A program made the translations under genes and the position numbers. A model generated the notes under the pieces. That model searched no databases. It was not told where the DNA came from and was given only the letters and a program-made list of their open reading frames with translations. Positions 43,553-46,606 of a stretch of DNA of 64,000 nt are shown piece by piece. The number at the start of each line of letters is the position of its first letter. Positions within the stretch are counted from its first letter, which is position 1. This DNA comes from a phage. The stretch is taken from the NCBI GenBank assembly GCA_036436775.1, contig GCA_036436775.1_3676.1. One strand, 5' to 3'.

Positions 43553-43906
43553 TTAGTGACAATCACCCCAGTTACGACCACACAAGTATTCACCTGTGAT
43601 CTGGAACGGGACTCCCATCATTTTAGAAGCTTGCCAGAAGCAATGCACCACCATTTCACCTACAGGGCTCCAGATAAGTTCAAGCTTTCCGTCATCGTTC
43701 AGGATAGGATCGTACACCGTGTTTCCGTCTCTGTCAACCACTTCGTTTCCGTCCTCATCCTTGCGTGCTTTTTTGTACTTATGACCGTCGAACACATGAA
43801 GTTTGGCCTCCTGCTCTGCCTTAAATGCTTCCAGTTCTTCAATTGTGTCGAAGGTGTACACAGTCTTATACTTCGGTGTGTCAGGGACTTGAAGTTGGTA
43901 CTCATC
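43553..43906 (-). CDS. Family-A DNA polymerase, C-terminal segment (candidate exon 2, motif C onward)
   Basis: Frame begins DEYQLQV...; ends GRNWGDCH, matching the G.NW..H terminus of Pol I/T7 gp5 as recalled; no ATG or RBS of its own. Confidence 0.7.
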   Translation of the reverse strand, partial: DEYQLQVPDTPKYKTVYTFDTIEELEAFKAEQEAKLHVFDGHKYKKARKDEDGNEVVDRDGNTVYDPILNDDGKLELIWSPVGEMVVHCFWQASKMMGVPFQITGEYLCGRNWGDCH

Positions 43907-44182
43907 CAATAGTTCAGGTAGGTCGTTAAGCTACCCCGCACCATTACGTGCATAGCCATACGTTTTCACGTAGGATCGGACCATCTCATATTCCTATGAT
44001 AAGCAACCACAGGAATCCTCCCATTTCGACCGCACTTGCTGGTCTACTTCCTTTCGGAATGGCCTCTGAGCGTTCGCTCTTTTGAGCGCTTCGTTGCGGA
44101 TTACCTTGCCATAAGGTTTAGGCTTCCCGCAGTTAAAGAGGTTATTCGACATAGATTACTCTATGAAGCCACAATGTTATTT
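43907..44182 (-). ncRNA. Candidate 276-nt group I intron splitting the DNA polymerase at motif C
   Basis: Upstream exon ends in U (codon CAT=His); intervening sequence ends in G before GAT GAG; joining gives YHDEYQLQV; internal GACCA/UGGUC pairing; contains stop codons. Confidence 0.5.
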
Positions 44183-46606
44183 ATGGTAATAAATAATACG
44201 GCGAACACCTTCATCGTACCACCCACGCTTCACCATTTGGTGGTGCATGAGTATCCCAACTAAGTCACACAGCGATGCACCACCATTCTGTTGGTATGCA
44301 TTAAGTAAAGAGTGTTTAGATCGGGTCCAGATAGCATGACCATCAAAAGAGTAGATAAACTTCTTACCAGTTGCTTCCCAGAATTTCTCCAGATCCTCTT
44401 TGCGCCCCTTAAGACCGGGGTTGGCATCCCAAAGCGCATCGATTACCCTTTGTCCCAACTCTGGAGAGATGTCCAGCATATCTGCAACTTTATCTTTTTG
44501 TGCCCCGTACATAACCCCATACGTGATAGGTTTACCGTCGTTACGGGACACCTCTCTACCTGCTACTTTCGTATATGCCTCAGCATTGTTTTGGTGTGCA
44601 TCTCCGTTACTTACAACATCGTAATACAGGCCGTTGTCGAACTCAAAGGCACCCCAAGCCCCGATAAGCTGCTCTAAGTTGGACCCGTCAATACCGATCT
44701 CAAAGTATCCTGGAGGAACACCCCACAAGCTACGCATCTCTTTACCCATAACCACTTTAGGAGATGGTTTAGGCATGTTTGCACAAATACTGTGTTTCTG
44801 TCTGGAAGTGTTTGTCAGCCCAGAACTTTTAGCAGGAAGCTTATGGTCAATCTTCAAACGTGGGTGATTAAGAAGACCAGTATCAACCTTATCCTCCTTG
44901 ATTGGATCAAGGACCGATCTGCGGTTTCGCAATGATAACCACAAGACGATATCTTTAGCCATCTCTCCGTTCAATTTTTCAAGATTCGGACACAGGTGTC
45001 CAAACGTATCTTTCAGTTGCGGAGAAGTAATAAGTGCTCTGGCTTTTCTACGTATTTTCCCGAATACTTCCTTTTTAATCCTTTCAGAGTTAGGAAAGCT
45101 TCGGAACTTGTGCACAGTTGTCTGGAACTTGGCATCAGTTTTGTTCCAGAAGTTGATAATCAGGTCACAATACTCTGACTCTAAAAGCTCGTCCATATAT
45201 GCATATACTCGTGCATCAACATCCGCATCAGGTAGAGCTTTCTTCTTGCTATCTTTAGTTACATCTTTAGTTCTCCACATTGTCGGTAGCCAGCCAGCAC
45301 TGATCAGATACCGCTTAATGTCGTCCTGATTGCTGATTTTCATAGGTATCTTGCAGTCCGGCATTCGCTTCTGCTGTAGATCACTTATTGCCTGATCCAT
45401 CAGCTCTTTAGGCAAAGGGTGGGGTGTGGAAGTGCCCTTAATATAGCCTCTCAAGAAATCAGCCATCTTATCGGGGTCTTTGCAGCCCATCTCTTCACAC
45501 CATTTTATCCCTATCTTGCTGACATCCCCTGTAGAGGTAAATGCTCGCTTAGGCGGGGCTTTGAACTCTAAAGCGCTCATGTCTACAGGATAGCCAAGCT
45601 TATCTTTTAACCATTTCCAACCATTATTAGAGATTGTCCCGTCTTGGTTAAACGGCTTTTCAGGGAACTTGGGCCGCTGAGACATTGACAGCTCTTTTAA
45701 AGGCAGCTGTGGTTCAACACGATCAGCGATTTCTTTCATCCACGCATCGCAACGGTCACGTAAAGCAATAGCTCCATCTATGTCGAAGTATACACCCTGA
45801 CGGGCCTGCAGCTCCATCAGGAAGTGCTGCAGCATGCCTCGACGTAGTGCGTTCTTCCAGGTGATCTTCTTGAACCCTTTCGGCTTCTCTTTGGCTGGAT
45901 CGTACATAAAGTTCTGCATGTCAGATTTGCCGTAGAATACACCTTTTGATTCCGCTACCAGCTCTTTCCAGAGCAGCTCCTGGATGATAACGTCCTCGAA
46001 TACACGATCCACATACTTCCACAACGGAAGATCGCGCCAGTCATCAATTTGAACTTTCTGGTTACCAAGGGCGTAGCCCCATGCCATAAGGCCGTGAGGA
46101 CCAACGGGCTGCATTTTCTTAGTAACCGGGTTGAATACAGAATCCGGACAACCTTTTGGTAAAGGGCGATCAGGCCACAAGATTCGGCTCATCGCCAACG
46201 TATCAAACAGATTAACCTGGTGGTCGTTGATAGTCCCCATACACTTAGGGTCACGGAACATATCAAAATGAATACCGGATAATCTTTCCATCAGCATAAA
46301 GTCATAACTGTAGCAGTTATGGCAGTTCAAAGCTGTTGGTGACCAGTCAGAATTTCCTGTAAGCCAACCTTCCAACTCCGAAAAATCTGCTATGCGAACT
46401 TCAAAATCTTTATAAAGAGTTTTCTTTGCCAGAATAAAGTTCTTAGCCTTCTCTATATCCTCTTCAGAGTAGTGTGTGCGGTCATTTAGAGGAAGGAACA
46501 GCATAAAACGGTTCTTATTCAGCTCTTTAAACAAGCCGCAGTGATAATAAAGATCTAGGTCTTCTAGTAAACCAGAGGCCTCAAGGTCGAAAGACCACAT
46601 ACTCAT
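44183..46606 (-). CDS. Family-A DNA polymerase, N-terminal segment (3'-5' exo domain, palm/fingers, motif B)
   Basis: FDLEASGL exo motif; Pol-A motif B KPITYGVMYGAQ; ORF runs into stop 8 codons past the point where motif C is expected; AAGGAGAACTGTAT RBS. Confidence 0.85.

Follow-up and report, generated by a model that had tools for sequence, protein, structure and literature searches.

A predicted ORF-less group I intron at motif C of the family A DNA polymerase gene in an rV5-like coliphage

In phage T4, the td, nrdB and nrdD (sunY) introns interrupt genes of nucleotide metabolism in their conserved catalytic parts, and alleles with and without the intron coexist in close relatives. At least the td intron is of subgroup IA2, with the P7.1 and P7.2 hairpins. 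They differ from the intron described here in their host genes, and in td and sunY the intron contains an ORF for a GIY-YIG endonuclease. Conserved regions of the family A polymerase genes of phages SPO1, SP82, Bastille and Pf-WMP3 have also been reported to contain group I introns, several of them IA2; all of these, in contrast to the present case, lie at Pol I position 674 in the fingers subdomain and encode nicking HNH endonucleases (I-HmuI, I-HmuII, I-BasI and I-PfoP3I) (PMC3428280). As summarized in the same paper, IA2 introns of the T7-like phages ΦI and W31 occupy Pol I site 881 (PMC3428280). A further described system is Pectobacterium phage vB_PatM_CB7 (CB7; Certrevirus, Vequintavirinae), in which the intron CB7_50 lies between the polymerase exons CB7_51 and CB7_49 and was reported, from RT-PCR and Sanger sequencing, to splice in vivo (PMC7344957).

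We analyzed a window of 64 kb (the whole stretch of phage DNA under study), which is DNA of an rV5-like coliphage (Vequintavirus) with approximately 97% identity to both LL12 and rV5. An earlier note had proposed that its polymerase gene is split at motif C by a 276-nt group I intron, a proposal now supported by the Rfam model RF00028, by covariation, and by alignment with T7 DNA polymerase and PHROG profiles. The CB7 intron shares with this one the insertion point (…YYH/DEYQ…, the slash marking the splice junction here and below), the 5' start AAGUAACAUUGUGGC and the 3' end …UUUG, with about 75% identity over the alignable core, but it contains an HNH endonuclease ORF, whereas the window intron has a 5-bp P6a hairpin instead. 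The likeness to ΦI and W31 (intron sequences AY769989 and AY769990) is one of type and place: these enterobacterial phages, too, have an IA2 intron in a family A polymerase gene of the T7 type, and its HNH ORF lies in P6a, where relatives of the window intron have theirs; they differ in that the endonuclease is encoded and that self-splicing has been shown in vitro (PMC3428280). Moreover, their hosts are podoviruses, whereas the window belongs to an rV5-like myovirus.

All features of the locus lie on the minus strand. Exon 1 (44183..46606, 808 codons), delimited by the ORF list, PHROG profiles and the T7 DNA polymerase alignment, encodes the exonuclease domain together with motifs A and B and ends on the His of motif C. 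It is followed by the intron (43907..44182, 276 nt) and by exon 2 (43553..43906, 117 codons plus stop), whose first residues are the Asp-Glu of motif C and whose C-terminus is GRNWGDCH. The intron thus interrupts motif C (HDE) after its His codon and before its Asp codon. Site 881 of E. coli Pol I is the His of QVH881-D882-E883. The two ORFs given in the earlier note were recovered unchanged: an 809-aa ORF (44177..46606) ending in ...RRIIYYHK, and a 118-aa ORF (43553..43909) without ATG, the sole 'start' of which is a TTG formed by the last three intron bases. The in-frame stop, in contrast, had been placed eight codons past the expected point of motif C and is in fact the second codon after the His; a K codon and then TAA follow exon 1, that is, UAA is the second codon of the intron. 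Excision of the 276 nt joins ...TAC CAT to GAT GAG... in frame, giving YYH/DEYQLQV, and it is only after this removal that motif C is complete. The predicted ligated exon junction reads UAUUACCAU/GAUGAGUAC, the predicted spliced protein across it reads …IIYYHDEYQLQVPDTPK, and the product after in-silico splicing has 925 aa. The restoration of YHDEYQLQV anticipated earlier agrees with T7 DNA polymerase, the PHROG profiles and intron-less alleles.

The predicted gene product is a family A (T7 gp5-like) DNA polymerase with motifs A, B and C. It matches T7 DNA polymerase chains (E 3e-16), with residues 633-813 aligned to T7 468-658 in a region that takes in GIDxSxLE, the K…YG…YG motif and HDE; across the junction, yyHDEyql is aligned to wvHDEiqv (VHDEIQV), HDE on HDE. 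Exon 1 matches PHROG 17 (E 4.8e-90), and the match to PHROG 8888 (DNA polymerase) falls into two pieces, with profile positions 1-185 on the tail of exon 1, ending at residue 808, and positions 186-295 on exon 2 (E 4.5e-58). These pieces abut, and the step from 185 to 186 is the exon boundary. Comparison of the spliced protein with polymerase profiles, as suggested in the earlier note, thus confirmed motif C through T7 DNA polymerase and PHROG, but Pfam DNA_pol_A alone scored 31.8 bits, slightly under its cut-off of 34.3, whereas the PHROG and PDB matches were strong.

The intron is already known, as an identical copy has been annotated in public genomes of close relatives, and there is nothing conceptually new in the locus. 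In LL12 (MH491969) and RudolfGeigy (MZ501102; a BASEL phage), the polymerase gene is annotated as a two-piece join, and the LL12 record carries the note 'intron-interrupted gene'. The LL12 paper describes a polymerase gene 'disrupted by predicted intron sequences', with predicted introns in both the polymerase and terminase genes (PMC6658697). In both phages the intron was predicted by homology only, and the records hold neither structure nor splicing data. An identical intron is present but unannotated in rV5 (DQ832317), whose record lists separate ORFs. The main value of the present analysis lies in annotation: the polymerase should be treated as one 925-aa protein, and the 809-aa 'polymerase' as well as the 118-aa and intron-internal 'hypothetical proteins' of older rV5-type records are artefacts of ignoring the intron.

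Altogether, at least 19 independent GenBank phage records have the same 276 nt in the same place and at 100% identity, with 0 of 276 differences even from phages whose polymerase exons diverge by 2.7-3.6% at the DNA level. Intron-less alleles occur as well. In nomo, V18, JohannBauhin, B9-1 and HdK5, the identical protein runs uninterrupted across the junction, a 125-aa stretch over it being present in one piece at 100% identity, and the DNA of JohannBauhin equals the predicted ligated junction exactly. In four of these five intron-less alleles, exon 2 begins with GAC rather than GAU, and four linked synonymous changes are located within its first 12 nt in four of the five.

At the RNA level, RF00028 matches 44192..43957 with 64.7 bits (E 4e-14; model positions 1-253 of 253). 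The covariance-model search proposed in the earlier note thus yielded a score over the gathering score of 50 bits; homologous introns score 72-91 bits. Besides this match, an Rfam scan of the 64 kb detected no other structured RNA or intron, even with hits accepted up to E<=1, and the window contains no tRNAs. Exon 1 ends in U44183 (T in the DNA); the 5' splice site lies directly after this base, and within P1 U44183 is wobble-paired (U·G) with G44172. The 5' strand of P1 (CCAU/AA, 44181..44186, from the Rfam alignment) pairs with UUGUGG (44174-44169) of the internal guide sequence CAUUGUGG (44169..44176), which was assigned from its P1 and P10 pairing. All six P1 pairs, including the U·G, are present in nine of nine homologues, and this invariance means no covariation. 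A second part of the guide, CAUU (44176-44173), forms a 4-bp P10 with GAUG (43903..43906), with which exon 2 begins; three of these pairs are unchanged in all nine homologues and the fourth is formed in six, again with no covariation. At the 3' splice site, the terminal G (omega-G, 43907) is invariant in the ten related introns examined. The exon U and intron-terminal G pointed out in the earlier note are therefore both accounted for, by U44183·G44172 in P1 and by G43907.

In the core, P3 is formed by CCUCUU (44136..44141) and GGGAGG (44017..44022), with 100% of cells paired and compensatory changes in two pairs. The P4-P5 domain (44095..44131; UGCGGG...UCCGCA with P5 inside) was delimited by RNAalifold and covariation. 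It is followed by P6 and P6a (44070..44094), in which P6a is, in the minimum free energy (MFE) fold, a CGCUC-AAAA-GAGCG hairpin of 5 bp with an AAAA loop; the HNH endonuclease ORF occupies the same element in relatives. P6 has an A·C mismatch in the window versus G·U in eight relatives. P7 pairs GGCCA (44060..44064) with UGGUC (43979..43983), with 100% of cells paired and one pair changed from U-A to C-G in the window and in SSE121. The P7-like pairing of the earlier note, GACCA (44044-44040) with UGGUC, had to be discarded: its fourth pair is formed in only one of nine homologues, and GACC covaries with GGUC as part of P7.2. Covariation and the MFE fold place P7.1 (UUCC-GAAA-GGAA), a GUA linker and P7.2 (GACCAGC…GCGGUC) at 44028..44059; two P7.2 pairs show compensatory changes, and GUAG at the linker is invariant in the alignment. 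Such changes also occur in four of six counted pairs of the P8 hairpin (43990..44016) and, for the P9, P9.1 and P9.2 hairpins (43916..43974), in 5/8, 1/4 and 4/6 pairs, respectively. Subgroup IA2 is recognized by two extra hairpins, P7.1 and P7.2, joined by G-U-A, which follow the 5' strand of P7 and precede the 3' strand of P3 (PMC3428280), and the predicted architecture of this intron is that of IA2, a full P1–P9.2 with P7.1 and P7.2. The homologues in Vibrio phages do not have P7.1.

Covariation was assessed in nine homologous introns, all at the H/DE site. The 65 pairs examined have 99.1% of their cells paired, and changes on both sides are seen in 26 of the 65 (n=9); none of 500 shuffles scored as high, and slid controls gave 32-41% paired. 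RNAalifold independently found P1, P2, P3, P4, P5, P7.2, P8, P9, P9.1 and P9.2, and the single-sequence MFE fold (z = -2.62) contains the same helices, with the P7.1 and P7.2 hairpins present. Two further RNAalifold elements, one a helix joining the distant columns 298-303 and 372-377, the other a small hairpin (columns 174-183), were rejected as artefacts, as the tool cannot draw the P3/P7 pseudoknot. These patterns support the view that the group I catalytic core has been kept by compensatory changes in the homologues.

We therefore regard it as highly probable that a group I intron of subgroup IA2, 276 nt long and without an ORF, interrupts the polymerase gene and that splicing restores the 925-aa polymerase. 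The anatomy, the fold backed by covariation, the precise junction and the restored protein are shown here; catalysis itself we infer. The whole gene would be transcribed into one pre-mRNA, in which the intron RNA would adopt the P1-P9.2 ribozyme fold. Exogenous guanosine bound in P7 would attack after U44183, held in P1 as the U·G wobble, and the freed 5' exon, aligned to exon 2 via P10, would then attack after G43907, so that ligation (...UAC CAU/GAU GAG...) would yield the mRNA for the 925-aa protein. Unspliced RNA would run into the stop two codons into the intron and give an 809-aa protein without the catalytic Asp-Glu. In published sources, we found no splicing experiment on the ORF-less 276-nt intron.

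The insertion could also be read as a decayed, splicing-dead remnant, with an 809-aa and a ~117-aa polypeptide assembling after translation like the split NrdA of Aeromonas phage Aeh1. Endonuclease-associated insertions that split genes and do not splice are indeed documented, for Aeh1 NrdA and for one CB7 intron (PMC7344957), and the original rV5 record, with its separate ORFs, would fit two polypeptides. However, compensatory changes have kept all core helices intact, exon 2 lacks an ATG and takes its 'start' TTG from intron bases, and the split would part the motif C His from the catalytic Asp. In addition, the intron is invariant while the exons of relatives differ by ~3%, which is the opposite of decay, and we consider this reading very unlikely.

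Still less credible is that the insert arose in sequencing or assembly, or that the gene is inactivated by an insertion other than an intron, such as a small mobile element. Nothing specific favours this reading, which includes the assembly error fusing the ORFs differently that the earlier note had raised, and it is effectively refuted: at least 19 independently sequenced phage genomes have the identical 276 nt in the same place, related introns occupy the same codon boundary in other genera, and RF00028 matches the insert. Translational hopping over the 276 nt without RNA splicing, as in T4 gene 60, would fit the stop codon directly after the take-off region, but the gap is several-fold above the 50-nt gap of gene 60, and a complete ribozyme fold, unneeded for bypass, is present; its probability appears to be equally minute.

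As regards the origin of the predicted group I intron, related introns at the same codon boundary were observed in Avunavirus, Seunavirus, Certrevirus and Vibrio phages. Among close relatives, the site may hold the ORF-less 276-nt form, a 317-329-nt form or an HNH-bearing form of 771-842 nt, or it may be empty, and the introns of APECc02, SSE121 and CB7 have the HNH ORF in P6a. The codon boundary inside motif C is thus an intron 'hot spot', which could be useful for studying intron gain, loss and endonuclease cassette exchange. The window intron probably shares its lineage with the HNH-bearing introns at this site, either having lost the endonuclease cassette from P6a or representing the form before its gain, and recombination between co-infecting phages would let it spread or persist. 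The earlier note had called it very small and essentially ORF-less. The latter holds: no homing endonuclease ORF lies inside the intron, its only ORF (52 aa, 43994-44152) has no Pfam match, and this ORF was rejected as a gene, having no family match and overlapping the P2-P8 core helices. The size, on the other hand, is ordinary, as homologous introns of Vibrio phages are 252-254 nt long.

A tblastn search of the 64-kb window with seven HNH proteins, which came from introns of relatives and from genes next to them, revealed no HNH gene, and a free-standing gene of the type found in navn is likewise absent. It is possible, although rather unlikely, that the ORF-less intron is still mobile by 'collaborative homing', in which an endonuclease acting in trans would cut the empty site, into which the intron would then be copied; the enzyme might come from a free-standing gene or from a sibling HNH intron of a co-infecting phage. 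This mobility is entertained because the invariance of the intron, the linked changes in exon 2 and the adjacent HNH genes of relatives fit it. Collaborative homing has been described for cyanophage psbA; to our knowledge, it has not been described for coliphage polymerase genes. Free-standing HNH genes adjoin the polymerase gene downstream in Vibrio phages K470 and IBT_VpB-34 and upstream in navn. The second 'piece' in navn was also considered as a second intron and rejected, since it is this free-standing HNH gene, located upstream of the start codon.

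The family A DNA polymerase gene of this rV5-like coliphage is interrupted by a group I intron of 276 nt (43907..44182, minus strand), which separates the His and Asp codons of motif C (HDE). The interpretation given in the earlier note was right apart from minor details. The feature is already known: public records list the identical sequence as an intron, and splicing has been demonstrated for a homologue at this site. Its value is for correct annotation and as an illustration that motif C is a hot spot for introns. Exon 1 (46606..44183, minus strand) is contained in an 809-aa ORF (44177..46606, minus strand) that ends with RRIIYYHK and a stop codon. 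As previously described, the downstream 118-aa ORF (43553..43909, minus strand), which includes exon 2 (43906..43553), has no ATG and ends with GRNWGDCH; its formal start, TTG, is made up of the three bases at the 3' end of the intervening sequence. Excision of the 276 nt fuses TAC CAT in frame to GAT GAG and yields a 925-aa protein with the junction YYH/DEYQLQV, restoring motif C as had been proposed. The stop in the unspliced frame is the second codon past the His (AAA UAA), not eight codons beyond the motif. Since the flanking bases differ, neither boundary can be shifted by one base, which fixes the splice sites at 44183/44182 and 43907/43906. A 52-aa ATG-initiated ORF inside the intron (43994-44152, minus strand), listed as a hypothetical protein in the rV5 annotation, is probably not a gene, because it spans helices P2-P8 and a search for a family match to it found none.

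The covariance scan proposed in the earlier note gave a match of the Rfam model RF00028 to 44192..43957 (minus strand) over the full model length (64.7 bits against a gathering score of 50; E 4e-14), and relaxing the cut-off to E ≤ 1 gave no further Rfam match anywhere in the 64 kb. P1 is formed by CCAU/AA and UUGUGG and contains a U·G wobble between U44183, at the end of exon 1, and G44172; the last intron base is G43907, so both terminal bases are those originally reported. A possible P10 pairs the guide sequence CAUU (44176-44173) with GAUG, bases 1-4 of exon 2. P7 and the 3' strand of P3 are separated by two hairpins with a GUA linker (UUCC-GAAA-GGAA, GUA, GACCAGC…GCGGUC), the P7.1/P7.2 arrangement by which subgroup IA2 is assigned (criterion quoted in PMC3428280). 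The single-sequence minimum-energy fold (z = -2.62) reproduced P1, P2, P3, P4, P5, P6a, P7.1, P7.2, P8, P9, P9.1, and P9.2. P6a is only a short hairpin here (CGCUC-AAAA-GAGCG), and 276 nt, earlier considered very small, is an ordinary length for a phage group I intron that carries no ORF.

Related intervening sequences were found by blastn in many phage genomes, and all ten that were extracted from these matches are inserted at the same point of the same motif, after CAT (His) and before GAT/GAY GAR (Asp-Glu). Among Vequintavirus phages, the site holds 276 nt identical to the window in rV5 (DQ832317), LL12 (MH491969), RudolfGeigy (MZ501102), and navn, 329 nt in JLBYU08, 328 nt in HMD-6, and 842 nt with an HNH ORF in APECc02. 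It holds 317 nt in 18-1-2 (Avunavirus), 771 nt with an HNH ORF in SSE121 (Seunavirus), an HNH-bearing insert in CB7 (Certrevirus), and 252-254 nt in four Vibrio phages. Nine homologous introns were aligned with their ORFs excised, and a structure of 65 pairs was derived (P1, P2, P3, P4, P5, P6, pseudoknotted P7, P7.2, P8, P9, P9.1, and P9.2). Standard pairing was observed in 99.1% of cells and changes on both sides in 26 pairs, values reached by none of 500 column shuffles; control structures slid by 1-3 columns showed just 32-41% pairing. RNAalifold, run blind to this structure, recovered every one of these helices apart from P7, which is pseudoknotted. In the comparative structure, P7 pairs GGCCA (44064-44060) with UGGUC (43983-43979) on the minus strand, with a compensatory U-A to C-G change in the window and SSE121, most relatives having GACUA/UAGUC. 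The GACCA/UGGUC pairing suggested before is not P7: its fourth pair holds in one of nine homologues (the window only), and its bases belong to P7.2, which itself covaries. At the base of P6 (44094 and 44070; alignment columns 126/175), the window has A·C and eight homologues have G·U, a change on both sides with a non-standard result.

Beyond the observed anatomy, fold, junction, and restored protein, we infer that the pre-mRNA self-splices, presumably by the standard two-step guanosine-initiated pathway. With UAA as the second codon of the intron, unspliced RNA would yield the 809-aa protein, which lacks the catalytic Asp-Glu. That the gene is simply split and works without splicing is unlikely: exon 2 lacks a start codon, residues of a single catalytic motif fall on either side of the break, and the covarying ribozyme core is intact and better conserved than the exons. 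The spliced protein matched T7 DNA polymerase chains (E 3e-16) in an alignment that covers motif A (GIDGSNLE vs GIDASGLE) and motif B (K…YG…YG) and crosses the junction (yyHDEyql vs wvHDEiqv, T7 residues 651-658). PHROG 8888, a DNA polymerase profile of 295 positions, aligned through positions 1-185 to the tail of exon 1, ending at its last residue, and through positions 186-295 to exon 2 from its first residue. The expectation that Pol A profiles would confirm motif C was borne out by the T7 HDE and by PHROG 8888 abutting at the junction; Pfam DNA_pol_A alone scored marginally below its cut-off (31.8 vs 34.3 bits).

Intron-less alleles were also observed: an uninterrupted 125-aa stretch across the junction occurs at 97.6-100% identity in close relatives (nomo, V18, JohannBauhin, B9-1, HdK5, JES2013, and others), and the JohannBauhin DNA is exactly the predicted ligated junction. 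The first 12 nt of exon 2 (43895-43906) read GAC GAA TAT CAG in four of five intron-less alleles and GAT GAG TAC CAA in intron-bearing ones, four changes that are all synonymous. JohannBauhin carries the intron-type flank, JLBYU08 has the hybrid GAT GAA TAT CAG, and the third base of the first exon 2 codon lies within P10; the pattern resembles either a co-conversion tract or variation in the target site. The intron is more conserved than the surrounding polymerase coding sequence, with 0/276 differences from rV5, RudolfGeigy, LL12, and navn and exon differences of 2.7-3.6% (probability of no intron difference at the exon rate, about 4e-5 to 5e-4 for each comparison). This invariance and the flank changes are consistent with a recent horizontal spread accompanied by co-conversion, a behaviour known from other introns of phages.

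Where relatives carry the HNH ORF, it sits in P6a. There the 3' end of the ORF pairs with sequence that lies just upstream of its start codon or includes it, forming the stem (intron nt ~120-137 with ~632-650 in APECc02, ~118-132 with ~607-620 in SSE121). Because of this pairing, the endonuclease start region would be sequestered in the folded intron. The HMD-6 328-nt form has the same core as the APECc02 842-nt form and differs in its short P6a, so the endonuclease behaves as a cassette. In the 64-kb window, tblastn with seven HNH proteins from relatives found no HNH homologue, and the helicase-polymerase gap is only 58 nt. Free-standing HNH genes adjoin polymerase genes with ORF-less introns, directly upstream in navn (locus L019, 289-1023) and directly downstream in Vibrio phages (K470, locus L008, 1694-2341; locus L012, 1089+). 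A free-standing endonuclease such as these might mobilise the intron in trans.

H881 of E. coli Pol I is the His of QVHDE. The T7-like phages ΦI and W31 are reported to have self-splicing IA2 introns at Pol I site 881, with an HNH ORF in P6a (PMC3428280). These introns resemble the present one in subgroup, host gene, and site. For the homologous intron of Pectobacterium phage CB7, which has the same H/DE boundary but carries an HNH ORF, RT-PCR and Sanger sequencing were reported to show splicing in vivo (PMC7344957).

Over the polymerase region, identity to LL12, rV5, RudolfGeigy, and other Vequintavirus phages is 96-97.5%, and the intron occurs at 100% identity in at least 19 records. The paper on LL12 also mentions predicted introns in its polymerase gene (PMC6658697). 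The LL12 record joins the exons, with the note 'intron-interrupted gene; intron splice site predicted based on homology', and that of RudolfGeigy, a BASEL phage, has a two-piece join; BASEL intron boundaries are described as set by comparative genomics (PMC8594841). The polymerase intron is unrecognised in the rV5 record and paper, which give a 775-aa polymerase and hypothetical ORFs and discuss introns for the terminase only. At this rV5 locus (DQ832317; locus L001, 698-3649), the polymerase from a later start and ORFs 225-227, three 'hypothetical proteins' placed within the intron and exon 2, are annotation artefacts of overlooking the intron, as is the 'DNA polymerase' entered twice in RefSeq NC_011041. 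In Escherichia phage Av-05 (KM190144), an Avunavirus, 120740-120872 in the terminase large subunit gene is 73% identical to intron nt 8-148, a hint of a related group I intron outside the polymerase gene. Sixteen 'Campylobacter phage' records (GenBank MG0656xx), many with the identical intron, share about 96-97% identity with E. coli Vequintavirus over this 3.3-kb region; their stated host, C. jejuni, looks doubtful.
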